A DNA stretch of 63,179 nt, the filler included, from a bacterium (GTDB taxonomy: Bacteria > JBDRGX01), in NCBI GenBank assembly GCA_043817485.1. It is 10 parts of 10 records of this genome, joined end to end, with 100 filler letters (N's around TTAATTAATTAA, not from the genome) between each part and the next. Parts side by side here need not be neighbours in the genome. Positions count along the whole stretch, not along the records: positions 29,240 to 49,159 come from JBDRGX010000075.1; 9 more parts are not named here. One strand, given 5' to 3'. Positions 32,448-55,687 of the stretch are shown in pieces. The translations under genes and the position numbers were made by a program. Numbering within the stretch: the stretch's first letter is position 1; each line of letters begins with the position of its first letter. The notes under the pieces are model-generated. The model had not been told where the DNA came from. It ran no database searches and saw only the letters and a program-made list of their open reading frames with translations.

Positions 32448-32450
32448 TTA

Positions 32451-32979: not shown

Positions 32980-33128
32980 AACTTTTACAACATTTTATAA
33001 TATTTTCTTGACAAATTTATAAAATATAGCAAAAAAAATATATAATTTTTAAAATAATTTAACGAATATTGAATTATAAATAAACTTTTGCATTTAGCAA
33101 GAGTCTATTTATTTAAAAGGAGATTTAT

Positions 33129-34229
33129 ATGGCAATAATTAATTTTGGAGGAATTAAAGAAGAAGTTATTACAAGAAAAGAATTTTCTATAGCAAAAGCA
33201 CAGCGTACACTTAAAAATGAAATAATTGCAATTATAGGTTATGGTGTTCAGGGTCCTGCTCAAGCTTTAAATTTGAAAGACAATGGTTGTAATGTAATTA
33301 TAGGACAATCAAAAGATTTTAAAAAAGATTGGGATAGAGCAATAAATGATGGATGGAAACCAGGAAAAGATCTTTTTGAGATAGAAGAAGCTATACAAAA
33401 AGGAACTATTATTCAAATATTAGTTTCTGATGCTGCTCAAAAAACAATTTGGCCAATAGTGAAAAAAAATCTTAAAAAAGGACATACTTTATATTTTTCT
33501 CATGGATTTTCAATTGTATATAAAGATCAAACAAAAATAATTCCTCCTAAAGATATAGATGTTATTTTAGTGGCACCTAAAGGATCTGGTACTTCTGTTC
33601 GTCGAAATTTTTTATCTGGTGCTGGAATTAATTCAAGTTTTGCTATTCATCAAGATGCTACAGGAAAAGCAAGAGAAAAATGTATTGCTTTAGGAATTGC
33701 TATTGGGTCTGGGTATCTCTTTCCTACTACTTTTGAAAAAGAAGTTTATAGTGATTTAACTGGAGAAAGAGGAGTTTTGATGGGTGCTCTTGCTGGTGTT
33801 ATGGAAGCTCAATATGATACCCTAAGAAAAAAAGGGCATAGCCCAAGTGAAGCTTTTAATGAAACAGTAGAAGAATTAACAGAAAGTTTAATTAAACTTG
33901 TAAGTGAAAATGGAATGGATTGGATGTTTTCTAATTGTTCAGCTACTGCTCAAAGAGGAGCACTTGATTGGAAACCAATTTTCAAAAAAGCTGTTTTACC
34001 AGTATTTGAAACACTTTATGAAAAAGTTAAATCTGGATTAGAAACAAAACGAGTAATTTCATCTTGTAGTAAGCCGAATTATCAAGAACAATTATCTAAA
34101 GAATTAGGATTAATCGGAAATTCAGAAATGTGGCAAACTGGAAAAACTCTTCGTGAATTAAGACCTAAAGAATTAGAAAAAAAAATTTCTAAAACTACAA
34201 AAGGAATTGCAGGAAGAAAAACAAACTAA
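33129..34229 (+). CDS. ilvC: Ketol-acid reductoisomerase
   Basis: GYGVQG, FSHGF, VAPKG, SDLTGERGVL. Confidence 0.96.
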   Translation: MAIINFGGIKEEVITRKEFSIAKAQRTLKNEIIAIIGYGVQGPAQALNLKDNGCNVIIGQSKDFKKDWDRAINDGWKPGKDLFEIEEAIQKGTIIQILVSDAAQKTIWPIVKKNLKKGHTLYFSHGFSIVYKDQTKIIPPKDIDVILVAPKGSGTSVRRNFLSGAGINSSFAIHQDATGKAREKCIALGIAIGSGYLFPTTFEKEVYSDLTGERGVLMGALAGVMEAQYDTLRKKGHSPSEAFNETVEELTESLIKLVSENGMDWMFSNCSATAQRGALDWKPIFKKAVLPVFETLYEKVKSGLETKRVISSCSKPNYQEQLSKELGLIGNSEMWQTGKTLRELRPKELEKKISKTTKGIAGRKTN

Positions 34230-34981
34230 AGAATATTAAATATTTTTTTAGCATTTAAAGTTGTAATTTCTTCTACTTCCTGAAATGACATTTTTTTAAT
34301 TGTAGCAATAGTTTCTATTATATATTTTAAATAAGTTGGATCATTTCTTTTTCCTCTAAAAGGATGTGGTGTTAAATAAGGACAATCAGTTTCTACAAGT
34401 AAATAATTCATATTAAGGTTTTTAATAATTTCCTTTGCAGAAAAATTTTTGTAAGTAATGTATCCAGCAAAAGAAACATACATTTTTTTTTCTAAACAAT
34501 ATTCATATATTTGTTTATCTCCAGAAAAACAATGAATAACAGCATTATAATAATTTTCTTCATCTAATATCTCTATTATATCTTGGTAAGCGTCTCGACT
34601 ATGGATAATTACAGGTAAATTTAATTTTTTTGCAATTTTTAATTGTTCTTGAAAAACTTTTTTTTGTAAAGGTTTTGGAGAATATAATTTAGTATAATCT
34701 AATCCTATTTCTCCAATAGCAACAACTTTATTTTTTTGTGCTAATTCTTGTAAAGATTGATATGTTACTATATCTACATCTTTTGCATTATGTGGATGAA
34801 TACCACAAGATGCAAAAACATTATTATTTTCATTTGTAAAATCAATTGCTTTTTTACTTGAATTTAGATCGCAACCAACACTAATAAAATATTTTATTCC
34901 TTGAGCAAAAATTTTTTCTATGACTTGTTTTCTGTCTAAATCATAAGATTGATCATCTAAATGTGTATGTGTATCAAACAT
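34226..34981 (-). CDS. tatD: TatD family hydrolase
   Basis: DTHTH, GIHPH, GEIGLD, HSRDA, HCFSG, ETDCPY; ATG 34981 preferred. Confidence 0.95.
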   Translation of the reverse strand: MFDTHTHLDDQSYDLDRKQVIEKIFAQGIKYFISVGCDLNSSKKAIDFTNENNNVFASCGIHPHNAKDVDIVTYQSLQELAQKNKVVAIGEIGLDYTKLYSPKPLQKKVFQEQLKIAKKLNLPVIIHSRDAYQDIIEILDEENYYNAVIHCFSGDKQIYEYCLEKKMYVSFAGYITYKNFSAKEIIKNLNMNYLLVETDCPYLTPHPFRGKRNDPTYLKYIIETIATIKKMSFQEVEEITTLNAKKIFNIL

Positions 34982-35065
34982 AAAAATACCTCTTTTTTGT
35001 TTAAAAATTGTATAAAAAAATTTTAAAATAAATATCAATATAACAAAAAAATGTAAATATTAAAA

Positions 35066-36115
35066 ATGAAAATAAATAATTTAATAAATCAACATATTAA
35101 AAAATTAATTCCTTATAAAGTAATTAATAATCCTTATAAAATAAAATTAGATGCTCAAGAAAATCCTTATGATATTTTGTTAAAACTAAAAAATAAAATT
35201 TTACAAGAAACAAAAAAAATTTTATTTAATAGATATCCAGATTCTTCATCTTATGAATTAAAAAAATCTATAGCAAAACATTATAAAGTAAAAACTGATC
35301 AAATTTTTTTAGGCAATGGCTCTGATGAAATAATTATGAATATTTTGCTTGCTTTTGGGAATTCTAAAACTTTTGTTTTATCTCCAGAACCAAGTTTTTC
35401 TGTGTACAAAATTTTAAGCAATACTTTAAACATTCCTTACAAGGGCATTCCTTTAGATGAAAAATTTGATTTAGATCCAAAATTATTTCTTTCTTTTAAA
35501 GGTATTTTATTTTTGGCTTATCCAAATAATCCTACTGGCAATTGTTATTCTGAAGAAAAAATTATTTATTTATTAAAACATTTTTCTGGAATAATTATTA
35601 TTGATGAAGCTTATGCTGAATTTTCAAACAAAACATTTTTAAATTATATTGATAAATATTCTAATTTAATTATATTAAAAACATTTTCTAAAATGTTTTC
35701 TTTGGCTGGGTTAAGAATTGGTTATTTAATATCTAATAAAAAAATAGTTGAAACTTTAGATAAAGTACGGCTTCCTTATAACTTAAATTCTTTTTCTCAA
35801 TTAGCAGCAAAAATTTTAATAGATAATTATAAATCGCTTGACAAAGTAAAAAAAACAATATTAAAAGAAAAAGAAATTTTATTTAAAAAATTGCAAGAAA
35901 TTAAAGGAATAAAAGCGTATCCAAGTGAAGCAAATTTTATTTTGTTTAAAACAAATAAAAATAATACTTATGTTTGGAAAGAATTATTAAAAAAAGAGAT
36001 ACTTATACGAAAAATAGACTCTTACCTTAGAGTAACAATAGGTTGTCCAGAAGAAAATAAAAAATTTATTTACTCACTTAGAGAAATTCAAAATGAAAAC
36101 AAAAAGAATAAGTAA
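35066..36115 (+). CDS. hisC: Histidinol-phosphate aminotransferase
   Basis: ENP, RYPD, GNGSDE, PNNPTG, DEAY, TFSK...LAGLRIG. Confidence 0.95.
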   Translation: MKINNLINQHIKKLIPYKVINNPYKIKLDAQENPYDILLKLKNKILQETKKILFNRYPDSSSYELKKSIAKHYKVKTDQIFLGNGSDEIIMNILLAFGNSKTFVLSPEPSFSVYKILSNTLNIPYKGIPLDEKFDLDPKLFLSFKGILFLAYPNNPTGNCYSEEKIIYLLKHFSGIIIIDEAYAEFSNKTFLNYIDKYSNLIILKTFSKMFSLAGLRIGYLISNKKIVETLDKVRLPYNLNSFSQLAAKILIDNYKSLDKVKKTILKEKEILFKKLQEIKGIKAYPSEANFILFKTNKNNTYVWKELLKKEILIRKIDSYLRVTIGCPEENKKFIYSLREIQNENKKNK

Positions 36116-36719
36116 AATAATTAGAAAAACAAAAGAAGTTGATATTCAATTAGAATTAAATTTAGATGGAAAAGGAATTTTTTCTATTGATACTGGTATT
36201 CCTTTTTTTGATCATATGTTAAATTTATTTAGTCAACATTCTTTTTTTGATTTAAAAATTAAAGCAAAGGGTGATTTAGAAATAGATGCACATCACACAG
36301 TAGAAGATATTGGCATTTGTCTTGGAAATGCCATAAAAAAGGCATTAGGTGATAAAATTGGAATTATGCGTTATGCAGATATTGTTCTTCCTATGGATGA
36401 ATCCTTAGTATCTTTAGCAATAGATATTAGTAATAGACCTTTTTTAGTTTTTAATTTTAAACCTTTAACTTCTTCATTAAAAAAATTACCTAAAGAAATT
36501 TTTTCTAATTTAGGAATTTTTGATCCTTGTTTAGTAAAAGAATTTTTGCAAAGTTTTAGTTCTAATGCAGGCATTACTCTTCATATAAATGTTGTATCTG
36601 GAGAAAATGTTCACCACATTATAGAAGCCATATTTAAAGGATTAGGTAGAGTACTTTTTAATGCAACAAGAATTAATTCTGAAATTAAAAATGTTGTTTC
36701 AACAAAAGGTATGCTTTAA
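36093..36719 (+). CDS. hisB: Imidazoleglycerol-phosphate dehydratase
   Basis: FFDHML, DAHHTVED, PMDE, HHIIEAIFK, STKG. Confidence 0.97.
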   Translation: MKTKRISKIIRKTKEVDIQLELNLDGKGIFSIDTGIPFFDHMLNLFSQHSFFDLKIKAKGDLEIDAHHTVEDIGICLGNAIKKALGDKIGIMRYADIVLPMDESLVSLAIDISNRPFLVFNFKPLTSSLKKLPKEIFSNLGIFDPCLVKEFLQSFSSNAGITLHINVVSGENVHHIIEAIFKGLGRVLFNATRINSEIKNVVSTKGML

Positions 36720-37450
36720 TCTTCTTGTCGACCTTCAATAAATCTTCTTAAAATAGGATTATTTGATTTTATAAAATCTTGCGGTGTATTCACACAAAGA
36801 ATTTTTCCTTGATGAAGCATAGCAATTTTAGTTCCTATTTTTAAAGCACTTGATATATCATGAGTTACGATAATAGAAGTAATTTTTAGAGTAATATGCA
36901 GTTTTTTTATTAAATCATTTATTACATTTGCTTTAATAGGGTCTAACCCAGAGGTTGGTTCATCATATAAAATTATTTCTGGATTAGCAATAATTGCTCT
37001 TGCTAATCCAATTCTTTTTCTCATTCCACCACTTAATTCTGATGGCATTTTATTTTCTGTTCCTTTTAATCCAACCATTTCTAATTTTTCAGCAACTTTT
37101 TTTTTAATTTCTTGATGAGATAAATTAGAATGTTCATATAAAAAAAATCCTACATTTTTTTCTACTGTAAAAGAATCAAATAAAGCTGATCCTTGAAATA
37201 CCATTGAAATTTTTTTTCTGATTTCATTTAATTTTTTTTCTGATAAATTTGCTATATTTTCTTCATTTATTAATATTGTTCCTTGGTCTGGTTTTAAAAT
37301 TCTAATTATATGTTTTAATAAAACACTTTTTCCACAACCAGATTCTCCTACTATTACTAATGCTTCTCCTTTTTCAATATCTAAAGATAAGTTTTTCAAT
37401 ACTTCCATATTCTCAAAAGATTTATAAATATTTTTTATTTGAATAAACAA
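36716..37450 (-). CDS. mlaF: MlaF-type ABC ATPase
   Basis: GESGCGKS, FQGSALFDS, LSGGMRKR, YDEPTSGLDP. Confidence 0.9.
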   Translation of the reverse strand: MFIQIKNIYKSFENMEVLKNLSLDIEKGEALVIVGESGCGKSVLLKHIIRILKPDQGTILINEENIANLSEKKLNEIRKKISMVFQGSALFDSFTVEKNVGFFLYEHSNLSHQEIKKKVAEKLEMVGLKGTENKMPSELSGGMRKRIGLARAIIANPEIILYDEPTSGLDPIKANVINDLIKKLHITLKITSIIVTHDISSALKIGTKIAMLHQGKILCVNTPQDFIKSNNPILRRFIEGRQED

Positions 37451-37463
37451 AATATATCCTTTT

Positions 37464-38231
37464 TTATAAATAAAAAAATATATAACTAATTAAATAATTA
37501 GTTATTACAATTAAAATTCCAGAATTAACTACTGCTAATGTTGTGGCTCTACCAACTCCTTCTGCTCCACCTTTAGCATTAAAACCACAATAACATCCAA
37601 TTGTAGCAATAATTATACCAAAAATAAAGGATTTGAATATTCCCACAAAAATATCTTTTAAAGTAATAAGAGAAAAAATTGAACTCATATAGGTTGATGA
37701 ATCTACATCTAATTGATAAACTGCTGTACAATAACCACCTATTATTCCAATAACATTAGAAAGAATTACTAAAATGGGAAACATTATCATACAAGCCCAA
37801 AGTTTTGGAACTATGAGATATTCGAAAGGATTAATTGCCATAGATTCAAGAGCATCAATTTGTTCTGTTGCTCTCATTATTCCTAATTCTGCAGCAATAG
37901 CAGAACTTACACGACCAGCAACTACAATAGAAATTAAAGTAGGTCCAATTTCTCTTAATAAAGAAATTGTTACTATATGGCCTACACGAGATAATCCGCC
38001 TAATTTACTCATTTGAGTTACTGCTTGAATTGCTAAAACCATACCAGCAAAACCTGCAACAGTAAATGCTATAGACAAAGATTTTATTCCTAAATAAATC
38101 ATTTGAGAAATGATAATTTTTTTTCTGAAAGGAGGAGTAAAAAAAGCTTTTAAAATATAAAAAAAGAAAATACTTAAATTTCCTATTTTTTTGAAAAAAG
38201 AAATAGTTATTTTCCCTAATAAGTTAAACAA
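37464..38231 (-). CDS. mlaE: MlaE family ABC permease
   Basis: REIGP, AGRVSSAIAAELG, EQIDAL, GGAEGVGRATT; TTG 38231 preferred. Confidence 0.92.
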   Translation of the reverse strand: MFNLLGKITISFFKKIGNLSIFFFYILKAFFTPPFRKKIIISQMIYLGIKSLSIAFTVAGFAGMVLAIQAVTQMSKLGGLSRVGHIVTISLLREIGPTLISIVVAGRVSSAIAAELGIMRATEQIDALESMAINPFEYLIVPKLWACMIMFPILVILSNVIGIIGGYCTAVYQLDVDSSTYMSSIFSLITLKDIFVGIFKSFIFGIIIATIGCYCGFNAKGGAEGVGRATTLAVVNSGILIVITNYLISYIFFYL

Positions 38232-38293
38232 AAAAACACCTTTGCCTCGAAGCGGCGTCAATTGGATTGATTTGTTGAAAAATTCTATTATTT

Positions 38294-38467
38294 TAAGTTG
38301 CAATTAGAAATAAAATGTTGCAAATTACCAAATTCGCTTTGTTTTGAATTTCAATATTTATTTTAAATTGAAAATTGAAAATTTATTTTGAATTTTGGTC
38401 ATTCGGATTTGTTTCGTATTTCGATTTTTTTTTATGTTACTATTTCTTTTATTGTAATTTAGCATTA
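38294..38467 (+). repeat. Degenerate MITE-like element related to 12175-12385
   Basis: TAAGTTGCAATTAGAAATAAAATGTTGCAA left end, TTCG-rich interior, ...TTATTGTAATTTAGCATTA right end. Confidence 0.5.
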
Positions 38468-39797
38468 ATGTATAAAGGATTTATTCTCAAATCGAGTGTA
38501 TTTATCAATAAAAACTAATTCAACAGTTCCTGTTGGTCCATTTCTTTGTTTAGCAATAATTATTTCAACTTTTCCTTTATCTTCGTCTTTTTTAGTATAA
38601 AGTTCTGGTCTATAAAGAAAAAGAACTAAATCTGCATCTTGTTCTAATGCTCCAGATTCTCTTAAATCTGCTAATTTAGGTCTACCTTTATCCTCTATTC
38701 TTGTTTCTACGCTACGATTTAATTGTGAACAAGCAATTATTGGAATATTTAATTCTTTGGCTAAAGATTTTAAAGACCGTGAAATTTCTGAAATTTCTTG
38801 TTGTCTATTTTCAAATTGACGGCGAGAACTATGAATTAATTGAATATAATCAATTACAAGAACACTTATTTTTGTTTCTGCTTGTAATCTTCTTGCTTTT
38901 GCTTTTATTTCTAAAGGAGAAAGCCCAGAACTATCATCAATATAAATTGGAGCTTCTGAAAGCTTACCTGCTGCATAAGAAAGATTAGACCATTTTTCAT
39001 GAGGAAGTTTTCCACTTCTTACAAGATTAGAATCAACCCTTGCTTCATTACAAAGCATTCTTCTTACTAATTGCTCTTTTGACATTTCTAAACTAAATAA
39101 TCCTACAGGCATTTTTAATTGGGAAGCAATATGTTGAGATATTTCTAAACAAAATGCTGTTTTACCCATTCCCGGTCTTCCAGCAACAATAATAAAATCA
39201 CCTTTTTGAAAGCCAGAAGTAAAATTGTCTAAATCTGTAAAACCAGAAGGAATACCACTTATTTTTTTACCATGTAAATTTTCAATTTCTTCAAAACTTT
39301 GTTCTATTATATTTTTAATAGGAATAAAGTCTTGGGTTATTCTATCTTGAGCAATTTTAAAAATTTCATGTTCTGCTTTATCTAATAAATTATCAATACT
39401 TTCTTCTTCTTCAAAACAAATTTCAGCAATTTGAATAGATTTATTAATTAAATTTCTTAAAATTGCTTTATTTTTTACTATTTTTGCATAATGCTCAGCA
39501 TTAGAAATAGAAGGAACATTGTCTGTTAATGTTGTTAAATAAACAGCACCACCGATTTCATCCATTAATTTTTTTTTTTTGTAATTCTTCTGTTAAAGTA
39601 ATTAAATCTACAGGTTCATTTTTTTCAAAAAGTTCTAAAATAATATCAAAAATTTTTTGATGTGATTCTTTATAAAAATTATTTTTATTTTTAATTATTT
39701 TTAAAACTGTTCCAATTACTTCTTTTTGAAGAAGCATTGCACCTAAAACAGATTGCTCTGCTTCTATATTTTGTGGAGGGATTTTATTGAAAGTCAT
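38465..39797 (-). CDS. dnaB: Replicative DNA helicase DnaB, split by a +1 frameshift in an A12 run (39569-39580)
   Basis: N-part PPQNIEAEQSVLG; C-part AGRPGMGKT, FSLEM, IDYIQL, LRESGALEQDAD; removing one A joins the frames. Confidence 0.95.
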
Positions 39798-39801
39798 TTT
39801 A

Positions 39802-40245
39802 TTATTCTTTAGTTACCCATACTTTTATTTGAGTTGTTATATTTTGATATAATTTAACAGAAATAGTATAAACTCCTAATTGCTTAATTGGTTCTTCTAA
39901 CATAATTTGTTTTTTATCTATTACATAATGTTCTTTTTTTAGTGCTTCTACAATATCTTGTGTTGTAACAGATCCAAATAATTTATCATTTTCACCTGAT
40001 TGTTTAGAAATGGTTAAAGAAATTTTATTAAGTTTTTCTGCCATAATTTTAGCTTCTTTTTCACATTTAGTGATTTGCAAAAGATGCATTTTTTTTTCAT
40101 GTTCATATATTTTTATATTTTCTAAATTAGCTTTTATAGCAAAATTTTTAGGAATAAGATAATTTTTAGCATAACCATTTTTTACTTTTACTTTACTTCC
40201 TTGTTTCCCTAATTTTTCAACATTTTGTTTTAATATAATTTCCAT
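39802..40245 (-). CDS. rplI: 50S ribosomal protein L9
   Basis: LGKQG..VKVKNGYAKNYLIP, KLFGSV. Confidence 0.97.
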   Translation of the reverse strand: MEIILKQNVEKLGKQGSKVKVKNGYAKNYLIPKNFAIKANLENIKIYEHEKKMHLLQITKCEKEAKIMAEKLNKISLTISKQSGENDKLFGSVTTQDIVEALKKEHYVIDKKQIMLEEPIKQLGVYTISVKLYQNITTQIKVWVTKE

Positions 40246-40355
40246 AAAATAAAACCTCCAATTGAAAAATCAAAATTAAAAAATAATATTTTTACAAATT
40301 TACTTTTATCATTTTTTATTTTCAAATTATTTAAACAAACTTTTTTATTTAATTT

Positions 40356-40574
40356 TTACTTATTAGACATATAAGATAAAAGGGCTAAATATCGTGCTCT
40401 TTTAATAGCAGTAGTTAATTGTCTTTGATGTCTTGCACAATTACCAGTATTTTTTCGAGAAAAAATTAATCCTCTTTCATTTAAATAGCCTTTTAATCTT
40501 TCTACTTCTTTATAATCAATTTCTTCTAATTTATTAATACAAAAACGACATTTTTTTTTCTTTTTGAAAATCAT
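40356..40574 (-). CDS. rpsR: 30S ribosomal protein S18 (Zn-binding form)
   Basis: [23 protein letters not shown]. Confidence 0.97.
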
Positions 40575-40600
40575 TTATGCTCCTTATTAAAAATAAGTTA

Positions 40601-41023
40601 TTAAAAAGGTAAATCTTTTTCTTTTTCTTCTTCTGTTTTTTCTATTTTTTCTGTTTCAGTTATTTCAGAAGATCCTTCTGAATTTTCTTTAAAACCTCTA
40701 TCTAAAAATTGAATTTTATCAGCAATTACTTCTAAAATACTTTTTTTTTCTCCAGATTCTGTTTCCCATGATCTATTTTGAAGTCGACCTTCCACAAAAA
40801 TACTTTTTCCTTTATTCAAATATTCTCCACAAAGTTCAGCTAATCTTTTCCATGCAATTATAGTTAAATAACAAGTTTCTTGTTTTTTTTCTCCAAGTTG
40901 ATCTGTATAATATCTATTAACTGCTAATCTCATATTAGCAATGGCTAAACCATTTTGAAGATAACGAACTTCTGGATCTTTAGTTAAATTACCAATTAAA
41001 AGCACTTTATTTAAGTTTGCCAT
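40601..41023 (-). CDS. ssb: Single-stranded DNA-binding protein
   Basis: NKVLLIGNLTKDPE, VEGRL, C-terminal DLPF. Confidence 0.97.
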   Translation of the reverse strand: MANLNKVLLIGNLTKDPEVRYLQNGLAIANMRLAVNRYYTDQLGEKKQETCYLTIIAWKRLAELCGEYLNKGKSIFVEGRLQNRSWETESGEKKSILEVIADKIQFLDRGFKENSEGSSEITETEKIEKTEEEKEKDLPF

Positions 41024-41040
41024 ATTTTTACCTCATTTTT

Positions 41041-41349
41041 TTATTTAGACACTAATTCTATTTCTTTTTTTAATTTTAAAATTATTTGTCTTAAGATACA
41101 TTCAGTTACTTTACAAAATTTTTCTAATTCATTTAAAATAACTTTATTAGCTTTTAGATGTAATAAAACATAATAGCCATCACTTTCAGATTGTATTTCA
41201 TAATCTAATTTTTTTTTACCCCATTTATCAGTTTTTACAATTTCTCCTTGATGTTCTTTTATAATATTTTCTATTTCTGTAAGAATTCCATCAACTTTTT
41301 CTTCTTCTAATTTTCCACTAATAACTACTACAAATTCATATAATTGCAA
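41041..41349 (-). CDS. rpsF: 30S ribosomal protein S6
   Basis: YE, WGKKKLDYEI, GYY; rpsF-ssb-rpsR synteny. Confidence 0.95.
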   Translation of the reverse strand: MQLYEFVVVISGKLEEEKVDGILTEIENIIKEHQGEIVKTDKWGKKKLDYEIQSESDGYYVLLHLKANKVILNELEKFCKVTECILRQIILKLKKEIELVSK

Positions 41350-41663
41350 AATTGCCTCCTTTCCATAAATAATTTTTATTATTATGCAAAATAATAAAAA
41401 ATTTACATCTGCATTATATAAGTATTTGCTTGTAATTTTTTACTTAAGCAAAAATACTTAAATTATTTTTATAAAACAGTTAGATTTTTTATCAAAAAAT
41501 TTTTATTAAAAAAATTAATATATCATTTTTCTTTTACAAGTCAAGAAAAATTTATAAAACTTATGCATTTTATAGTATTGTTTGTAAATTTTATTGACAA
41601 TTACAAAATTTATAGTAAATAAACTTTTTGTAAAAATTAATTAAAAGGAAAAAAAGAAGGAAA

Positions 41664-43397
41664 ATGGAACAGGAAAAAAAACAAATTTATTTTCATAGTA
41701 GTGCTCATATTTTGGCTCAAGCAGTAAAAGAAATTTTTTATGATGTAAAATTAGGAATTGGTCCTGCTATTAATGAAGGATTTTATTATGATTTTGATAA
41801 AGAAATTTCTTTTACTTCAGAAGATTTATTGCAAATAGAAAATAAAATGAATGAAATAATAAAAGCAAATTTGAAAATTGAAAAAAGTACTCTTTCTAAA
41901 AATGAAGCTTTAGAATTTTTTAAAGATGAGCATTATAAAATAGAATTAATTAAAGAAATAGAAGATGAAGTAGTCAGTATTTATAAACAAGGAAATTTTG
42001 TAGATTTATGTAAAGGCCCACATCTTCAAAATACGGGTGAAGTTAAGGTAATAAAATTATTAAGTGTTGCTGGTGCTTATTGGAAAGGTAATGAAAAAAA
42101 TAAAATGCTTCAAAGGATTTATGGATCTGCTTTTGAAACAGAACAAGAAAAAGAACTTTATTTAAAAAAATTAGAAGAAATAAAAAATCGCGATCATCGA
42201 AAATTAGGAGATAATTTAGATCTTTTTAGTATTCATCCTCAAAAAGCTGGATCTGGTTTAATTTTTTGGCATCCTAATTTATCTATTGTAAGACAAGAAA
42301 TTGAAAATTTTTGGAAAAAAGAACATTATAAAAAAGGGTATCAATTAGTTTATACACCACATATAGCTAAAATAGATATTTGGGAAAAATCCGGGCATTT
42401 GGATTTTTATAAAGAAAATATGTTTTCTCCAATAGATATAGATAAACAAAAATATATTTTAAAACCAATGAATTGTCCTTTTCATGTTTTAATTTATCAA
42501 ACTAAAACAAGAAGTTTTAGAGATTTACCAATAAAATATGCAGAATTAGGAACAGTTTATCGTTATGAAAAATCTGGAGTACTTCATGGAATGCTTCGAG
42601 TAAGGGGCTTTACTCAGGATGATGCTCATATTTTTTGCACTAAAGAACAATTAAAATCTGAAATTGAAAAAGTAATTGAATTGGCTGAATATATTTTGAA
42701 AACATTTGGATATAAAGAATACAATGTTTATTTAAGTACACGACCAGAAAAATATATTGGAACATTAGAAATTTGGGATTTAGCAACATCTTCTATAGAA
42801 CAAGCTTTAAAAGAACAAAAAATAAAATACGAAATAGATGCAGGCGAGGGTGTATTTTATGGCCCTAAAATAGATATAAAGGTAATGGATGCAGTAGGTC
42901 GAGAATGGCAAGGGCCAACTATTCAAGTAGATTTTAATTTTCCACAAAAATTTAATGTAGAGTACATAAATTCTCAAAATCAATCAGAACAAGTTGTAAT
43001 GATACATAGAACAGTAATGGGAGCTATGGAAAGATTTATTGGTGGGCTTATTGAACATTATAAAGGAGCTTTTCCTGTTTGGCTTGCACCAGTACAAGTA
43101 GTTATTTTACCTATTACAGATAATCAAATAGAGTATGCTAAAAAAATAGAAAGTATTTTAAAAGAAAATGATTTTCGTGTAATTATTGATTTAGAAAAAG
43201 AAAAATTGGGATTTAAAATTAGAAAAGCTCAATTACAAAAAATTCCTTATATGTTAGTTATTGGAAATAATGAACTTAATTCAAACAATGTATCTGTTCG
43301 TTTAAGAACAGAAGAAAATTTGGGGGCTATGACATTAGAAGAATTTATAAAAATTGGAGAAAAAGTAATCAAAAATAAATCATTAGAGTTAATGTAA
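41664..43397 (+). CDS. thrS: Threonine--tRNA ligase (lacks the N-terminal TGS domain)
   Basis: HSSAH, DLCKGPH, RDHRKLG, KPMNCP, RVRGFTQDDAH. Confidence 0.97.
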   Translation: MEQEKKQIYFHSSAHILAQAVKEIFYDVKLGIGPAINEGFYYDFDKEISFTSEDLLQIENKMNEIIKANLKIEKSTLSKNEALEFFKDEHYKIELIKEIEDEVVSIYKQGNFVDLCKGPHLQNTGEVKVIKLLSVAGAYWKGNEKNKMLQRIYGSAFETEQEKELYLKKLEEIKNRDHRKLGDNLDLFSIHPQKAGSGLIFWHPNLSIVRQEIENFWKKEHYKKGYQLVYTPHIAKIDIWEKSGHLDFYKENMFSPIDIDKQKYILKPMNCPFHVLIYQTKTRSFRDLPIKYAELGTVYRYEKSGVLHGMLRVRGFTQDDAHIFCTKEQLKSEIEKVIELAEYILKTFGYKEYNVYLSTRPEKYIGTLEIWDLATSSIEQALKEQKIKYEIDAGEGVFYGPKIDIKVMDAVGREWQGPTIQVDFNFPQKFNVEYINSQNQSEQVVMIHRTVMGAMERFIGGLIEHYKGAFPVWLAPVQVVILPITDNQIEYAKKIESILKENDFRVIIDLEKEKLGFKIRKAQLQKIPYMLVIGNNELNSNNVSVRLRTEENLGAMTLEEFIKIGEKVIKNKSLELM

Positions 43398-43399
43398 AA

Positions 43400-44989
43400 A
43401 TGCCAAAAATGAATCTCCTCATCCATAAATGGCGAGGTATCTTCTCTGCAAGGAAAATATATTATTATTGTGACAATTTATCCCAGTCTCAAGAGACGGT
43501 GATGAATTGTCACTCCCAGATAAAAAATTATTTTCTTATTTTTCTCTTTTTTTTTAGCATCTATTTTTTAGTTTCAAGTGGTCGTATAGAAAATGTTGAT
43601 GGTATGAATATGTTTCAAGTGACTCAATCACTTGTAGAAAAACAAAGTTTTAAATTAGATTTATTTAGTGGTGGAACTGTTTATGGACCAGATGGAAATA
43701 TTTATTACCCTTGTGGTTTAGGTCATCCCATGGCAACAATTCCTTTTTTTTTAGCAGGAAAATTTTTTTTACAATTATTTAATATTCATCAAAATGAATT
43801 AATATATCTTAGATTTTTTGTTTCTCTTTTTAATCCTTTTATAACTGCATTAACTTGTCTTATTCTTTTTATTTTTTTTCAAAAATTAGGTTGTTCATAT
43901 AAAAAAGCTTTTTTTTTAACTTCTTTATATGGGTTTGCAACAATATCTTTTCCTTATGCTAAATATTGTTTTAATCAGCCATTAGCTTCTTTTTGTCTTT
44001 TAACTTCTATTTTTTTTCTTTATATATCTCGTCAAAAAATTTCATTAAAACGAATTTTAATTGCTGGTTTCTTTTTTGGATATGTTTTTTTTACTCGCAA
44101 TGAACTTATTGTTTTATTACCAATAATACTAATTTGTTTTTATTTATTAATTGAAAAAAAAAGTTTCAAAAATTTTAGTATATTTTTTTTACCTATTTTA
44201 TTTTTTGGAATAACAACGCTTTTTTATAATAAAATAAGGTTTGGAAATTTTTTTGAAACGGGTTATAATTTATTATTTGAAAAAAATTCTATTTTTGCTT
44301 TTAATCCAATTTTAATTTTAAAAAATATTTTCTTATTTTTTTTTGATATTAATAGTGGCATTATATTTTTAATGCCCATATCTTTTATATTTTTCTTTAG
44401 TTTTTTTAAATTTTGGCAAAATTATAAATTAGAATCTCTTGTTTTTTTTCTTCTTATTTTTTCTATAATAATTTTATATAGTTGTTATGTTTATTGTCCA
44501 TTAGGTGGTTGGTGTTGGGGTCCAAGATTTTTAGTTTTGATAATTCCCTTTTTATCTTTACCTACGATTGCTTTAATTCCTTTATTGAAAAATAAAAAAA
44601 TTTTATATTTTGTGATTTTTATAACTTTATTAAGTATTGCAATTCAGATTTTAGTTGTTTCAACAAGTTATCTTCTTATTTTTGAAAATCCCGTAAAAAC
44701 AATATTTTTAAAAATGCAGTTTCAAAATTTTGTTCATTGTTTTAAAAATACTTTTATTTTTTTGCAACAAAAAGCAATTGTTAATAAAGAATTTTTTTTA
44801 AATAATTGTCTTGACTTTTGGTTTATTTATTTATTTTATATAAAACCAGTAAAATATTTATTACTTATCCCTTTATTTATTGTAATATTTATTATATCTC
44901 TTGGATGTTATTTAATACTAAATTGCATTCAAAATGATAACAAGGTGGCAAAAGAAAGTGTATTAGATAATACAGTGGAGAAGCCGTAA
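43400..44989 (+). CDS. GT-C (PMT/ArnT-like) membrane glycosyltransferase; N-terminal 37 aa and C-terminal tail come from mobile elements
   Basis: Many TM segments, DG..M, YAK, YNKIRFG, WCWGPRFL; adjacent GT2 gene. Confidence 0.8.
   Translation: MPKMNLLIHKWRGIFSARKIYYYCDNLSQSQETVMNCHSQIKNYFLIFLFFFSIYFLVSSGRIENVDGMNMFQVTQSLVEKQSFKLDLFSGGTVYGPDGNIYYPCGLGHPMATIPFFLAGKFFLQLFNIHQNELIYLRFFVSLFNPFITALTCLILFIFFQKLGCSYKKAFFLTSLYGFATISFPYAKYCFNQPLASFCLLTSIFFLYISRQKISLKRILIAGFFFGYVFFTRNELIVLLPIILICFYLLIEKKSFKNFSIFFLPILFFGITTLFYNKIRFGNFFETGYNLLFEKNSIFAFNPILILKNIFLFFFDINSGIIFLMPISFIFFFSFFKFWQNYKLESLVFFLLIFSIIILYSCYVYCPLGGWCWGPRFLVLIIPFLSLPTIALIPLLKNKKILYFVIFITLLSIAIQILVVSTSYLLIFENPVKTIFLKMQFQNFVHCFKNTFIFLQQKAIVNKEFFLNNCLDFWFIYLFYIKPVKYLLLIPLFIVIFIISLGCYLILNCIQNDNKVAKESVLDNTVEKP
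43409..43519 (-). mobile_element. 111-bp IS200/IS605-end-like mini element (PATE-like), in frame within the 43400 gene
   Basis: 92/111 nt identical without gaps to 59900-60010; two hairpins; flanked by ATAAA (TTTAT on the element strand). Confidence 0.85.
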
Positions 44990-45029
44990 CAAAGCCAACA
45001 CAGTTAGCGTTTAAATGCAACTTGGCATA
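44913..45029 (+). mobile_element. ERIC/Correia-like MITE (family B) overlapping the 3' end of the GT-C gene
   Basis: TAATACTAAATTGCATTCAAAATGATAACAAGGTGGC...AAAGCCAACACAGTTAGCGTTTAAATGCAACTTGGCATA. Confidence 0.8.
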
Positions 45030-45039
45030 AGAGGAAATT

Positions 45040-45741
45040 ATGAAATTATCCATTATTATTCCCGTTTATAATGAAGAAAGTACTATTAAAGAAGTTTTAG
45101 AAAAAATAGAAACACTTTCTTTGCCAATAGAAAAAGAAATTATTGTTGTCAATGATGGGTCAACAGATAAAACATTTTCAATTCTTGAACAAATGAAAAA
45201 AACAAACAAAGAAATAAGTGTTGTTTATAATAGTTTAATAAATATTGGAAAAGGCGCTGCTGTTAGAATTGGTTTTCAGCATGTAAAAGGTGATATAATT
45301 TTAATTCAAGATGCAGATTTAGAATTAGATCCAAATGAAATTAAACATCTCATAGAGCCTATTTTACAAAATAAAACAAAAGTAGTTTATGGTTCTCGTT
45401 ATTTAACTAAAAATAAAAAAATAACTTTTTTAAATTATGTTGCTAATAAATTTCTTAGTTTGCTTACTAATTTTCTTTATAAATCAAAAATAAGTGATAT
45501 GGAAACTGCTTATAAAGTTTTTAAAAAAGAAGTATTAAGTGATATTAAATTAAAATCTCTTAAATTTGATTTTGAACCAGAAATAACCGCTAAAATATTA
45601 AAAAAAGGTTATAAAATTATGGAAATACCTATTGGTTATAATCCACGAAGTTCTTATGAAGGAAAAAAAATTGGATGGAAAGATGGAGTTATGGCTATTT
45701 ATACTTTATTAAAAATTAAATTTCAAAAAGAAAAGTTTTAA
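45040..45741 (+). CDS. GT2 polyprenyl-phosphate glycosyltransferase (DPM1-like)
   Basis: IIPVYNEE, DGSTD, GKGAA, QDADLE, GSR, DMET, FEPE. Confidence 0.92.
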   Translation: MKLSIIIPVYNEESTIKEVLEKIETLSLPIEKEIIVVNDGSTDKTFSILEQMKKTNKEISVVYNSLINIGKGAAVRIGFQHVKGDIILIQDADLELDPNEIKHLIEPILQNKTKVVYGSRYLTKNKKITFLNYVANKFLSLLTNFLYKSKISDMETAYKVFKKEVLSDIKLKSLKFDFEPEITAKILKKGYKIMEIPIGYNPRSSYEGKKIGWKDGVMAIYTLLKIKFQKEKF

Positions 45742-45849
45742 ATTATCAACATATATCAAAAAAAATCTGTTTATTACTCTATTCTAAAAATAATTTTGAG
45801 TTTAATTATTTTTTTATGTAGAATAACAATAAAAATAAAAAGTAAAATT

Positions 45850-46329
45850 ATGATACAAAAACAATCAATAAAAACAGGATTTAGTTTTGGGTTAACTTCG
45901 GGAATAATTACAACACTTGGATTAATGGTTGGATTACATTCTGGAACTCACTCAAAGATTGTAGTTATCAGTGGGATATTAACCATAGCAATAGCAGATG
46001 CATTTTCAGATGCTTTAGGTATCCATATATCTGAAGAATCAGAACATAAACACACTACAAAAGAAATATGGGAAGCAACAATTTCTACTTTTTTATCCAA
46101 ATTTATTTTTTCATTAACATTTATTATTCCTCTTTTGCTATTTCAACTTTTAACAGCAATTGTTGTAAGTATAATTTATGGTTTATCTTTACTATGTTTT
46201 TTTAGTTTCTATCTTGCCAAAAAGCAAAAAGTAAATCCATTGACAGTCATAGGAGAACATTTAATTATTGCATTAGGAGTAATAATTATAACACATTATA
46301 TTGGTGATTGGACTAGTCAATTAAAATAG
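45850..46329 (+). CDS. VIT1/CCC1-like membrane protein
   Basis: FGLTSGIITTLG, ADAFSDALGIHISEES. Confidence 0.75.
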   Translation: MIQKQSIKTGFSFGLTSGIITTLGLMVGLHSGTHSKIVVISGILTIAIADAFSDALGIHISEESEHKHTTKEIWEATISTFLSKFIFSLTFIIPLLLFQLLTAIVVSIIYGLSLLCFFSFYLAKKQKVNPLTVIGEHLIIALGVIIITHYIGDWTSQLK

Positions 46330-46510
46330 TTAAAAAAATAAAAACAAGTAGTTATTTTGTGAAAAAAAATGTGAATGTTTTTATATATCAAGAACAATAT
46401 AAAATAATTTAACCTATGTTAGATAACAATACGTTATATGATATTCTTTTTTTCTTTTATGTATTTAGATGCAGGTTTTTTTATTCTGACTTCTGTATTC
46501 TATTTAGTTT

Positions 46511-46562
46511 AAGGAACCGTAACAAAGCCAACACAGTTAGCATTAAATGCGATTTGTTATTA
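46511..46562 (+). mobile_element. Right half of a family-B MITE
   Basis: CCGTAACAAAGCCAACACAGTTAGCATTAAATGCGATTTGTTA. Confidence 0.7.
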
Positions 46563-46581
46563 TAAATAAACCAAATGGAAA

Positions 46582-46923
46582 TTAATAAATTTTTTTCAAA
46601 TATACTTGAATTCTTTTATCATTTTCATTTGTTTTTTTGCCTTTAAAATATATTTCCAAAAAATCAATTTTACAATTTTGCTTATGAAAAGCATAAATAA
46701 TTCTTAAAGAAGTGTCTTTTAAATAACGACAAAATAAACGAGCCTTAACAATAGAACATTGCTCATTTTTTATTATAATATTAAAATGTCTACCAATTCC
46801 TAAAGGCCTCTCATTTAAAACTTTTTGAAATTCTATCAAATCTTGATCCAACGATTTAATTTTTTTGAATAATTTTTTAAAATCTTTTTGAAATTCTATT
46901 GTGCTTTTAAAGTTCATCTTCAT
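46582..46923 (-). CDS. RelE/ParE-like toxin
   Basis: EFQKDFKKL, VKARL, LRIIYA, EIYFK; overlaps the antitoxin 3' end. Confidence 0.75.
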   Translation of the reverse strand: MKMNFKSTIEFQKDFKKLFKKIKSLDQDLIEFQKVLNERPLGIGRHFNIIIKNEQCSIVKARLFCRYLKDTSLRIIYAFHKQNCKIDFLEIYFKGKKTNENDKRIQVYLKKIY

Positions 46924-47719
46924 AATTTCTAACCGAATGATTATCATCACGATAAAAAACGGTTTCGTAACTTATTTCTTCTCCTATTTTATGAACTATC
47001 CAAGGAGTATCTGAATGAGAATAATTGCTTAATTCAGTAGCATTTTTCCATGCAAGGCGTGCCAAAACTTCATCTATGTGCTGAATTTCTTGAGCAGATA
47101 AAACTTTTAAATCAGATGATCTTCTCGATAAATATTTTTTTTGATCATGTTGAAAATGCTTGCTTTTAATTTTCTCTATCTCACCGATTTCTATCATTTG
47201 GTCAGTTATTTTTTTAAACTCAATTGGTGTTGGCCCAAAATGATTTTTAATATATTTGGCACCAATTATTTGTTCCTCAAATTTTTCATAATAATCAAAA
47301 TCTATAAAATAAAGCAATTTATAAATTGCCGTTTCTCCAATATTTGAACGAGCTCCCACTTTTTCTAAAAGATATAACAAAACTTCTTTAAACTTTTTTA
47401 CATTTGTTTTCGGCATAATAATTCTTATTTTTGATTTGCCTGTTTTTTTAGTATTTTTTTTAAATATTGTTTGTTTTTTCAAGTCTACTTTAATCGATGA
47501 TTTTTTTTTACCTTCAATAAAATCTTCAAATGAAATACCAAAAATATTTGCGAGATTTTTTGCTTCAACAATAGTTAAATCTCTATTCCCTTGTTCTATC
47601 TGAACATAAGTTGGACGAGAAATATTAAGTTTTAACGCTAAAAATTCCTGTGTCAAATTATTTTCTTTTCTTAATTGTTTAATAATTTCAGCGATGTGTT
47701 TTGAAAAATAGTTACTCAT
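46907..47719 (-). CDS. XRE-HTH + DUF4065 (SocA/Panacea) antitoxin
   Basis: LTQE.LA..L.ISR..Y..IEQG HTH; KLLYFIDF, GP.P, SH..PW. Confidence 0.88.
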   Translation of the reverse strand: MSNYFSKHIAEIIKQLRKENNLTQEFLALKLNISRPTYVQIEQGNRDLTIVEAKNLANIFGISFEDFIEGKKKSSIKVDLKKQTIFKKNTKKTGKSKIRIIMPKTNVKKFKEVLLYLLEKVGARSNIGETAIYKLLYFIDFDYYEKFEEQIIGAKYIKNHFGPTPIEFKKITDQMIEIGEIEKIKSKHFQHDQKKYLSRRSSDLKVLSAQEIQHIDEVLARLAWKNATELSNYSHSDTPWIVHKIGEEISYETVFYRDDNHSVRNYEDEL

Positions 47720-48106
47720 AAAATTACCTCCTACATAAAATCACTGTATATCATATTATAATTAACTAATGTAAAATAATTTGTCAAGAATAATGTAAAA
47801 TAATTTAACATAACTATATTTCATTTAAAACATTCGTAATTTTTTGCAAGCGGCGAGACTTCAAATTAGGTGGCGAGTGGGTGGAATTAGTTCTCATATC
47901 TATTTTTTGAATTTTTATATAATTTAATTATATCAGATTTTTCCTCATCAAAATTACTTTCATCAAGTTGATTCACTAATTTGTCTATTTCTCTCATTTC
48001 TTCAACTAATTCTTCTTTCATAAACTTTAATCCCTGTATACCATGTACCTTCCCTATTACAATTTATTTCAAAAAGAAAAAAATTACTACAATCTTTTAC
48101 TTTTTT

Positions 48107-48138
48107 CTGCCCCCGCTGGCGGGGGTAGAGGGTGGATT
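48107..48138. repeat. GC-rich REP-like hairpin (family C)
   Basis: CTGCCCCCGCTGGCGGGGGTAGAGGGTGG; reverse-complement relative nested at 58292-58338. Confidence 0.7.
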
Positions 48139-48966
48139 CTACTTCAGCATCAGCATTTTTTTACAGTTTTGAGTTTTGTTGTCCACAATTGTTTCATAAA
48201 AATACATTCCCGATGAAACTTCTTTTCCTAAATTATCTCTTCCATCCCAATATACGGAATTACTTGCATTATTTGTAATTACTTCTCTGACTACTTGTCC
48301 CAGTATATTATATATTTTGATTTTAATATTTTGGGTTTTGTTGTTTGTTATTTCTAATGGAATATAACATTCGGGATTAAATGGATTTGGGTAACTTTTA
48401 ATTTTAGATAAATTCATTGAATTTGTAGGTGAAAATATATTTATTGCTGTTGTATTATTTGGATATAATAAAGGGAATAAATCTGTAATTCCATTTCTTG
48501 TATATGTTCCATCTCGTACTCCATCCATATTAGTATCAGGGATAGTACATTCTTGCCAATAGTTTCCTTTTCCATTATTAACATCATACCAAATATTATT
48601 GGTTCCTGTATCTCTAACATTTGCATTATTTAAGAAATTGTTTTCGTATATTTTAAAATTTGTACCAAAAGGAATAGTAAGGCTTGCCTCATTTTTAAAG
48701 GTATTTTTTACTATTAAAGCGTTTTTGTGCTCAAAAGCCCCATTATCTTCACTAAAAACATCTCTATCAAAAATATTCTCTGCTACAATAACACCATTTA
48801 CCGCATTACTATTAAATTCAACCCCTTTACTATAATGACCAGTAATGTAATTTCCTTTTATAAGAAGATTTGTTTTTATTCCCAAATAAGTAATCGCTTC
48901 TGAAGTAATTGGTGCAGCACATATATAAACATCTACACCATCATCTGATATTCCTCCGCCTAACAA
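48139..48966 (-). CDS. NosD/beta-helix protein with C-terminal FlgD-Ig/T9SS-like domain, probably the 3' part of a disrupted gene
   Basis: N-rich beta-helix repeats, GKGNYW, D..PL, YPNPFNP, IYNILGQ.V, WDGRD..G..VSSG.Y. Confidence 0.7.
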   Translation of the reverse strand: MLGGGISDDGVDVYICAAPITSEAITYLGIKTNLLIKGNYITGHYSKGVEFNSNAVNGVIVAENIFDRDVFSEDNGAFEHKNALIVKNTFKNEASLTIPFGTNFKIYENNFLNNANVRDTGTNNIWYDVNNGKGNYWQECTIPDTNMDGVRDGTYTRNGITDLFPLLYPNNTTAINIFSPTNSMNLSKIKSYPNPFNPECYIPLEITNNKTQNIKIKIYNILGQVVREVITNNASNSVYWDGRDNLGKEVSSGMYFYETIVDNKTQNCKKMLMLK

Positions 48967-49259
48967 TTCGTATTGTCAAAAGTATTTTGACAATACGCTT
49001 TAAAATGCTTATTATTAGCAATTATTAAGATTTTATTTGCTTCTCCCCCCTTTTTTATACTATAAATAAAAAAAAATAAAAAAAAAAGGAGATGCAAATC
49101 AATGAATAAAATAAATCGTTTTGTTATTTGGATATGTTCCAAATTTACTCGTAATGATANNNNNNNNNNNNNNNNNNNNNNNNNNNNNNNNNNNNNNNNN
49201 NNNTTAATTAATTAANNNNNNNNNNNNNNNNNNNNNNNNNNNNNNNNNNNNNNNNNNNN

Positions 49260-51982: not shown

Positions 51983-52257
51983 NNNNNNNNNNNNNNNNNN
52001 NNNNNNNNNNNNNNNNNNNNNNNNNNTTAATTAATTAANNNNNNNNNNNNNNNNNNNNNNNNNNNNNNNNNNNNNNNNNNNNTTTTATTTATATATTTAT
52101 AAAAGATTATTCTTTTACAAAAAATTAACATTTCTATTTAGTAATTATCGTTAACATTTTGATTTAGTAATCACAAATTTTAAAAAAATCTTGACAAAAT
52201 TTGAAAAAGATTATTTTTTTATAAAACATTTTATATTAATTAAAGGAGGTATTTTAA

Positions 52258-55317: not shown

Positions 55318-55449
55318 NNNNNNNNNNNNNNNNNNNNNNNNNNNNNNNNNNNNNNNNNNNNTTAATTAATTAANNNNNNNNNNNNNNNNNNNNNNNNNNN
55401 NNNNNNNNNNNNNNNNNTCTTTATATCAACTAATTTAAGTCTTTATATA

Positions 55450-55574: not shown

Positions 55575-55687
55575 AAATATAAAACCATCTTGGATTTTTA
55601 TATTTTTTTGTTTCGAACATTTGTATTTATTTCAAATTGAAAATTGAAAATTTGTTTTATATTTCAGTTATTTGTATTTGTTTCGTT

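Follow-up and report, generated by a model that had tools for sequence, protein, structure and literature searches.

A gene-less, IS200/IS605-like element of 111 bp in the first codons of two genes of an uncultured groundwater bacterium

Insertion of an IS200/IS605 element is marked by a conserved motif that lies outside the element on one side, without duplication of the target. These marks were found on a unit of 111 bp that occurs twice in a 63,179-nt stretch of a metagenome-assembled genome (GCA_043817485.1); the whole stretch, which consists of ten contigs placed end to end and is not one molecule, is referred to below as the window. In IS608 of Helicobacter pylori, cleavage is described as occurring 3' of TTAC, 19 nt 5' of the left palindrome's foot, and at a right site, TCAA, 10 nt 3' of the right palindrome, with a four-base guide lying 5' of each foot (PMC3201880). 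The guides are given as AAAG (left) and GAAT (right) (PMC5934647), and excision of IS200/IS605 elements is reported to be precise (PMC3201880). Transposase-free derivatives of IS605-type transposons, the palindrome-associated transposable elements (PATEs), have been described from Haloquadratum walsbyi (PMC3119063). Short palindromic repeats fused in frame with genes have also been described, among them the Rickettsia palindromic elements, BOX, ERIC, and QMITE1 (PMC10969869, PMC3184786), and such fusions of small mobile repeats include both 5' and 3' gene ends (PMC3184786 section 15, PMC10969869 section 4.2). The repetitive extragenic palindromic (REP) families are reported to carry the tags GTAG or CGTC (PMC3733652).

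The 111-bp unit is very probably a gene-less, site-specific mobile element through which its two host genes are read in frame. By analogy of anatomy, a derivative of the PATE type, descended from an IS200/IS605-type insertion sequence, is considered its likelier identity, with some reserve. It is a variation on a known theme rather than a new kind of biology. With it, the small mobile repeats that persist in essential genes through their translation would gain a gene-less member of IS200/IS605-like type.

In-frame copies, an empty site and a third copy

The two copies, their host genes, and the genes upstream of these are as follows.

43409-43519, plus strand (host-gene sense): copy A of the element, 111 nt, equal to 37 codons; the proposed active (top) strand is the minus strand
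59900-60010, minus strand (host-gene sense): copy B, also 111 nt, with the plus strand as its proposed top strand
43400-44989, plus strand: host gene A, with the element as its codons 4-40; the product is a multi-pass membrane protein similar to the putative glycosyltransferases LA_3751/LA_3752
41664-43397, plus strand: thrS (TIGR00418, E = 7e-214), its stop 2 nt before the start codon of host gene A
59315-60016, minus strand: host gene B, nadD (nicotinate-nucleotide adenylyltransferase), an open reading frame (ORF) of 233 aa; codons 3-39 are the element
60020-60937, minus strand: proA (NF001221, profile positions 113-418 of 418), its 5' part cut by the contig end at 61045

When copy A was aligned with the reverse complement of copy B, 92 of the 111 bases were identical and no gap was required. 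The common stretch is really 118 nt long (43408-43525 and 59894-60011, 99/118 identical), taking in a further A at the 5' end and ATAAAA at the 3' end. The copies lie on separate contigs (29240-49159 and 55418-61045) and were recovered both by nhmmer (E = 2.5e-35 for A and 2.3e-34 for B) and by a covariance model (137 and 150 bits). No further copy was found in the window by nhmmer or by the covariance model run with its filters off; a weak nhmmer match at 3251-3286 (E = 0.032) was judged a chance likeness of an AT-rich native N-terminus. Copy A starts at a codon boundary after ATG CCA AAA (MPK|) and copy B at one after GTG GCA (MA|). In both, the first codon of the element is an in-frame ATG, and the host frame is open through the whole of the element. 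The ungapped alignment and the reading of the ORFs thus confirmed the preliminary description of two indel-free 111-bp copies that begin on a codon boundary and are free of stops in the host frame. Comparison of the flanks of copies A and B bore out two further statements, that the target is not duplicated and that ATA AAA follows the element. The host starts, said to lie 2 to 3 nt behind the thrS and proA stops, were indeed found at 2 nt and 3 nt, with the proA terminus at 60020.

Evidence that the 111 bp were inserted came from NadD. A search with its residues 38-233 returned a protein from another assembly (P0003; 197 aa, 84% identical) whose N-terminus reads MSIKWGILGG, where the window NadD reads MA, then the 37 residues, then IKWGILGG. 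This comparison of predicted proteins identifies the 111 bp as an insertion for which P0003 carries the predicted empty site, known at the protein level alone and with nothing gained relative to MA|IKWG. The proposal that removal of the element restores MA|IKWGILGG was borne out by this start, and the contrary possibility, that the 37 residues are conserved in orthologues without the hairpins, does not apply, as the closest NadD orthologue is without them. An orthologue with the exact empty site also provides an unusually clean natural control. P0003 keeps Ile-Lys, which assigns the ATA AAA behind the element to the host and not to the element. In an alignment of 31 NadD homologues, the start of 23 lies 0 to 2 residues ahead of the MRIG position, and 6 are naturally extended at the N-terminus, by 9 to 40 residues. 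Family models start past the element in both hosts, at residue 36-44 in NadD and at residue 45 in the glycosyltransferase-like protein. Host B matched NF000840 (E = 4e-69) with residues 36-231 on profile positions 2-200, and its match to TIGR00482 begins at residue 44; host A matched NCBIfam NF047440 (E = 1.2e-20, below the curated cut-off) with residues 45-430 on profile positions 6-391.

The insertion affects how these genes are annotated. The database product of nadD (P0002) has 231 aa, the gene caller having picked the element's own ATG and passed over the GTG, although a Shine-Dalgarno-like motif, GGGAG, 6 nt upstream is better spaced for the GTG. An exact look-up of the host A protein from either start found it absent from the protein collection, and its public call probably starts at another position. 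Gene callers may accordingly be expected to start nadD at the ATG of the element, and the membrane protein may be mis-started.

Three groundwater metagenome runs of one study contain small shares of the stretch (0.17, 0.09, and 0.04), and no RNA data set containing it was listed. Over 29300-49100 the reads of these runs formed short contigs of about 2x depth, among which no listed joint skips 43409-43519, a coverage too thin to judge empty alleles or excision; one read contig, also of about 2x depth, has a 1-nt gap at 43419.

A third, diverged copy was found with back-translated peptide patterns at 1509-1635 of a 2,163-bp JGI metagenome contig (L006). In the alignment of the three copies it is 9 nt longer than the others. 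Three blocks are kept nearly letter for letter in the gene sense (AATGAAKCTCC, ATYTTCTCTGCAAGGAAAATWT, and CAGA(A)TAAAA), and the hairpins are G+C-rich and very unlike those of the window copies in sequence. This copy is intergenic: the TGA stop of the upstream ORF lies within the AATGAA of the element, and the next gene follows 31 nt downstream. If the element were absent, the upstream ORF would end at the TAA of ATAAAA with its last residues unchanged. The flanking genes encode an unknown 236-aa protein and a VirB4/TrbE-like protein, and the neighborhood as a whole (PrgI, a PD-(D/E)XK protein, the unknown protein, and the VirB4/TrbE-like protein) indicates a different organism and a different gene context. 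As an observation on this contig in its own right, the PD-(D/E)XK_3 nuclease-family gene, at 373-834, lies between the PrgI and VirB4/TrbE-like genes of the type IV secretion-like cluster and overlaps its neighbors.

With L006, the known copies number three. A profile of the peptide found it in 0 of 1.84 billion representative proteins, a protein search being blind to intergenic copies. Among longer proteins the peptide gave two candidates, neither of them scoring, and intergenic copies are invisible to that search too; among proteins of near length, the sole match was the 43-aa ORF of L006 itself. No match to the element was found in plasmids and phages with blastn in distant mode, and none of 54 stretches picked out by peptide patterns in viral contigs was confirmed. 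A 19-mer, TTCTCTGCAAGGAAAATAT, had five matches in genome contigs; these came from five unrelated phyla, had only a 19- to 22-mer in common, and were rejected as chance, and the pattern would miss even L006. Five matches of a 17-mer in viral contigs were likewise all chance.

The only frame free of stops in all three copies is that of the ATG; the other five frames of copy A have 1 to 4 stops each. With a single open frame and a length of 37 codons, any surviving copy within a gene must share orientation and phase with its host, and no special mechanism is needed to account for this. The 19 differences between copies A and B fall on codon positions 1, 2, and 3 in the ratio 3/11/5, giving 12 nonsynonymous against 2 synonymous codons. 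To judge from its sequence, the 37-residue peptide is a passenger on which there is no selection. In nadD, the next in-frame ATG, GTG, or TTG behind the element is Met95, past the GGTFNPIHNGH motif, so that a complete NadD needs read-through from the GTG or from the ATG of the element. The lack of indels and stops after 17% divergence would fit translation through the element. In an AlphaFold2 model of NadD residues 2-233, the fold was kept and the core had a pLDDT above 90, with 45 to 48 for the first 30 residues, as would suit a floppy N-terminal tail tolerated by NadD; this is taken as supportive only. Most likely, the element is translated as a harmless N-terminal tail of 37 residues. Of the two fates suggested in the preliminary description, survival as a translated peptide is favored by the single open frame and by Met95 as the next start, translation itself being deduced from the DNA. 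For the other, that the element is taken out of DNA or RNA, there is no indication: no intron or ribozyme family of Rfam 15 reached its gathering score in the window, and with E values up to 10 the two window copies and L006 gave only chance-level rows.

Flank, strand and hairpins compared with IS608 and PATEs

The flanks and structural parts of the window copies are listed here, with coordinates on the window.

43520-43525, plus strand: flank of copy A, ATAAAA (TTTTAT on the minus strand), the Ile-Lys codons of the host; proposed target and left cleavage motif
43417-43437, plus strand: copy A hairpin 1, from RNA and DNA folding; proposed right-end palindrome on the minus strand
43470-43513, plus strand: copy A hairpin 2, a single long stem in which the guide positions are paired and degenerate (ATCA)
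59894-59899, plus strand: flank of copy B, TTTTAT, which is ATA AAA (Ile-Lys) in nadD; proposed target and left cleavage motif
59906-59949, plus strand: outer stem of copy B hairpin 2 (helix 1), 59906-59912 pairing with 59943-59949 around the inner stem-loop
59914-59917, plus strand: proposed left guide of copy B, the 4 nt AATA directly 5' of the inner hairpin's foot; pairs with TTAT
59918-59937, plus strand: inner stem-loop (helix 2) of copy B hairpin 2, proposed as the left palindrome, with 18 nt between its foot and the plus-strand 5' end of the element
59959-59982, plus strand: central block of copy B, near-invariant in the three copies, ATYTTCTCTGCAAGGAAAAT in gene sense; a small hairpin is possible
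59983-60000, plus strand: copy B hairpin 1 (helix 4), the proposed right palindrome
60001-60010, plus strand: right tail of copy B, GGAGATTCAT, 10 nt, ending TCAT; proposed right cleavage site, which reads ATGAATCTCC in gene sense and gives the in-frame ATG

On the strand antisense to the genes, TTTTAT lies directly 5' of the element at all three copies, and the other flank is variable except for one T. None of the three copies has a target duplication, their flanks being without a shared repeat. Terminal inverted repeats were no better than chance: the first 35 nt were matched locally to the last 35 nt in reverse complement, and the best observed score was equalled or exceeded in 391/500 shuffles for A, 157/500 for B, and 109/500 for L006. 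Hairpins were found near both ends, at equivalent places in the three copies, with RNA and with DNA energy parameters and on either strand; the fold z-scores of the element ranged from -3.7 to -5.4, and both strands folded about equally well.

The stems were found to be kept by compensation. Across the three copies, 9 of 32 pairs were altered on both sides and yet kept, and 89.6% of cells were paired, compared with 79.5% in shuffles (0/500 reached the observed value) and 38 to 55% when partners were slid; the covariance model to which the three sequences were aligned had been built on copies A and B, and the alignment is fitted to it. Changes on both sides were seen in 4/7 pairs of helix 1, where 100% of cells were paired, and in 3/7 pairs of helix 4, and compensatory changes are also present in helix 2. 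Helix 3, the central block, is uninformative on structure, with 7/10 of its pairs invariant.

Read on the antisense strand, the layout resembles that published for IS608, the comparison being made with published layout values alone (PMC3201880, PMC5934647). In both, the insertion lies 3' of a short motif that is left outside the element. When the inner stem of hairpin 2 is taken as the left palindrome, on which both the guide and the left spacing depend, the left foot lies 18 nt from the cut in copy B and 20 nt in L006, against about 19 nt in IS608. The guide of copy B, AATA, forms 4/4 Watson-Crick pairs with TTAT, and that of L006, AATG, forms three Watson-Crick pairs and one G-T pair, so that TTAT/AATA or AATG correspond position by position to TTAC/AAAG of IS608. 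On the right, the palindrome is followed by a tail of 8 nt (A and L006) or 10 nt (B) that ends TTCAT in 3/3 copies, setting TCAT 8 to 10 nt after the palindrome, compared with TCAA at 10 nt in IS608. The four bases before the right palindrome are GATA in A, ATAT in B, and GATG in L006, those of A and L006 starting with GA as does the GAAT of IS608. Unlike IS608, the element is without tnpA and tnpB, has another target motif, bears an extra outer stem around the left palindrome, and has one copy, A, without guide complementarity. The preliminary proposal of a nonautonomous IS605-derived element is upheld as to the missing inverted ends, the near-end hairpins, the lack of duplication, and the one-sided flank; the IS608-like spacing and guide are present in only 2/3 copies.

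The gene-sense strand was rejected as the active one, since its 5' flanks are AAAA, GGCA, and AAAA and no guide complementarity is seen on it. For the same strand, ATGAA as a target was rejected on the grounds that P0003 keeps Ile-Lys rather than Met-Lys, that no 5' sense flank is conserved, and that guide complementarity is lacking.

The features tabulated for PATEs (PMC3119063) are all present: the ends are not inverted, palindromes lie near them, no target is duplicated, and the unit is too short to encode a transposase. Dependence on a targeting oligonucleotide of 4 to 6 nt at one end, reported in the same source, is a further likeness. Differences are that copies of the present element are read in frame inside genes, that the host is an uncultured bacterium from groundwater, very rich in A+T, and that the center is the most conserved part, where PMC3119063 reports conservation of the palindromes and the terminal oligonucleotide. 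PATEs are also defined there by their link to a resident IS605-type transposon, whereas the element is likened to them by anatomy alone.

Other classes of small repeat fit less well. A classical MITE (a miniature transposable element with inverted repeats), derived from a DDE transposon, was rejected for want of terminal inverted repeats and a target-site duplication. A repeat associated with REP sequences and their tyrosine transposases (RAYTs) was rejected as well: GTAG/CGTC tags are not conserved at any end of the three copies, CGTC being present only inside a stem of copy A. With the Rickettsia palindromic elements, as they are described (PMC10969869, PMC3184786), the element shares behavior only, being a short palindromic mobile repeat of whole codons that gives an in-frame peptide segment; both of its in-gene copies lie at codons 3-4 and not internally. 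From these elements and from BOX, ERIC, and QMITE1 it differs in having IS200/IS605-like rather than inverted-repeat, MITE-like anatomy, the family being set apart by description.

A literature search on IS200/IS605 and nonautonomous elements with in-frame insertion returned no description of such a copy, and an in-frame copy of the PATE type may be unreported, which is a narrow gap. The novelty first claimed for an in-frame mini element was too wide, given that in-frame repeat-gene fusions (PMC3184786, PMC10969869) and PATEs (PMC3119063) are in print.

Mode of movement, gene-start position and other explanations

The course of events envisaged is as follows. The 111-bp unit would be a gene-less palindrome-associated descendant of an IS200/IS605 insertion sequence, moved along the single-strand "peel and paste" route by a Y1 HUH transposase that acts in trans. 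The strand antisense to the host genes would be the active one; on it, the unit sits directly 3' of host TTTTAT, with the foot of a left palindrome 18 to 20 nt from the cut, a 4-nt guide before that foot complementary to TTAT, and a right palindrome followed by a tail of 8 to 10 nt ending TCAT, and it would enter without target duplication. The window copies, 17% diverged, would be old, having landed before an in-frame ATA AAA at codon 3/4 of nadD and of the membrane glycosyltransferase-like gene. They would have persisted by being exactly 37 codons long and open in one of six frames, with the floppy tail tolerated; copies in another frame or orientation, or deep within a protein, would be lost. 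The absence of indels may be put down to the fact that sloppy deletion is forbidden inside a needed gene.

The position of the copies is a separate matter. Counted on both strands, ATAAAA occurs 481 times in the window. In its 50 largest nonoverlapping ORFs there are 92 in-frame ATA AAA sites, of which 4 fall within the first five codons when the element is subtracted, including both that are occupied. By our own arithmetic, the chance that two of two copies fall in this class is about 0.0014, for a window that has noncoding space too. The start-codon bias is real for n = 2 and is unexplained by the target motif. Of the bias as first proposed, the placement of both window copies at codons 3-4 stands; it concerns only two copies, the third being intergenic. 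Survivorship, not targeting, is the likeliest reason for the gene-start position, on two grounds. An insert of 37 residues is tolerated at an N-terminus and seldom within a fold, and nothing short of exact excision can rid a needed gene of its copy, while neutral intergenic copies decay in a small genome with a deletion bias. The copy in L006, at a gene junction and outside any gene, fits either survivorship or a true preference for gene boundaries. If the association with start codons is true, it may point to an unrecognized interplay of single-strand transposons with translation-initiation regions in uncultured bacteria of small genome.

Several observations weigh against the proposed IS200/IS605-type origin. 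Copy A breaks the guide rule (ATCA, 2/4 pairs), its guide bases being paired within a longer stem. The guide match is short, AT-rich, and common by descent to copy B and L006, so that it counts as one observation and not two. The left and right palindromes of one and the same copy are alike only in L006 (17/24) and not in copy B (12/20). Between very different hosts, it is the central single-stranded block and not the palindromes that is most conserved, which is unlike what is predicted for a transposase that reads palindromes and would suit an RNA function. Neither tnpA nor tnpB was noticed when the translations of the 57 ORFs of at least 110 aa in the window were read, without a Pfam scan. 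The mechanism itself gives no reason why both window copies should lie at codons 3-4. The known copies are three, and translation of the tail is deduced from sequence.

The conserved center leads to the suggestion that the unit is a structured RNA first, spread as a small mobile cassette, with a role in the transcript of the operon or as a guide-like RNA in antisense. Variants of this would be an element that processes or stabilizes mRNA, a module for restarting translation with its own ATG, or a remnant of a TnpB/IscB-type guide-RNA scaffold with the central block as its core. Unpaired blocks that are conserved next to stems that vary with compensation form the usual pattern of a functional RNA. 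All three copies stand at the junction of two codirectional genes, 0 to 11 nt after the upstream stop and oriented as the genes are, and each opens with AATGAA; the fold z-scores given above speak for it too. The orientation of the window copies is, however, already forced by their single open frame, which leaves only L006 informative. Counting against an RNA, no Rfam family was matched, whether at gathering score or with E values up to 10, the two strands fold about equally well, and P0003, which is without the element, shows it to be dispensable for nadD; copies are also few. An RNA function is on this balance considered unlikely, if worth keeping in mind. A similarly small chance is given to mobilization by a different enzyme, whether an IS91/ISCR/Helitron-like rolling-circle transposase, an IS110-type recombinase, a REP-associated Y1 enzyme, or a tyrosine recombinase acting on folded single strands. 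The absence of inverted ends and of a duplication, the near-end hairpins, and the one-sided flank fit these too, and the window has a tyrosine recombinase-like ORF at 62448-63029, though on another contig. Against them, it is the IS608 layout in particular that is matched by the spacing, by the complementary guide, and by the tail ending TCAT, and the REP tags GTAG/CGTC are not conserved in the copies.

Removal of the element before or during expression, by self-splicing, by programmed excision from DNA in part of the population, or by ribosome bypass, is held to be very improbable. It could draw on the strong structure of the element and on the precise excision reported for IS200/IS605 (PMC3201880), but no intron or ribozyme was matched, and a segment that is removed has no need to stay free of stops and indels through 17% divergence, as is expected under translation. 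For bypass, matching take-off and landing codons are present in copy A (AAA...AAA) only and not in copy B (GCA...AAA). Still less credible, and hardly to be entertained, is an ordinary N-terminal protein segment, vertically inherited or duplicated, with incidental hairpins. Its frame is open, and 6/31 NadD homologues are extended N-terminally; the closest orthologue is nevertheless without the 37 residues, the hosts are unrelated, nonsynonymous codons exceed synonymous ones by 12 to 2, the third copy is intergenic, the stems covary, and none of the 1.84 billion representative proteins has the peptide. The PATE-type element can also be extended speculatively, with low confidence, to a wider undescribed PATE-like class in bacteria of the Candidate Phyla Radiation (CPR) and other uncultured groundwater bacteria, adapted to translation starts and operon junctions. 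Its own ATG, codon length, and single open frame would then serve to hand ribosomes on to the displaced gene, the central block would be an RNA core (for example, the remnant of an antisense guide-RNA scaffold directed toward the upstream gene), and the gene-start position would come from targeting or benefit and not only from survivorship.

Composition of the window and other features

The window has a G+C content of about 25%. Its ten contigs are separated by nine spacers, each made of 44 N, TTAATTAATTAA, and 44 N, at 3604-3703, 8193-8292, 20195-20294, 22537-22636, 29140-29239, 49160-49259, 51983-52082, 55318-55417, and 61046-61145. Genes that adjoin the spacers, such as proA, a DnaA-like N-terminus, methyltransferases, and others, are truncated because the contigs end there and not for a biological reason. 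A large repeat family of the window, D1, was rejected as an artifact of the N spacers. A noncoding, AT-rich direct repeat of 84 nt (family D18) occurs at 38338-38421 and 55607-55690, on different contigs, with 81% identity.

A lone 37-nt match to the CRISPR-DR7 repeat model was found at 28572-28608 (53 bits; gathering score, 37). It ends exactly at the ATG of a DNA methyltransferase-like ORF (28609), and no array was seen in the 900 nt upstream. On the last, very AT-rich contig, the ORF at 62448-63029 (193 aa) appears tyrosine recombinase-like from its translation; its neighbors are short ORFs without an obvious family.

Two adjacent paralogous genes for MacB/FtsX-type ABC permeases, at 25249-26499 and 26512-27705, share about 70% DNA identity over long stretches and show up as the repeat families D2, D5, and D19. 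A second small repeat family is located at approximately 25185-25290, 44908-45015, and 58139-58265; its ends resemble TTGCATTYAAAATGATAACAAGGYGGC ... ACAAAGCCAACAYAGTT, and the part between them varies. Its member at about 44908-45015 forms the last 20 or so codons and the stop of the glycosyltransferase-like gene that bears copy A, and that at about 58139-58265 lengthens the longest radical SAM ORF (57430-58362, minus strand) upstream of a probable TTG start (MKYIYGPV).

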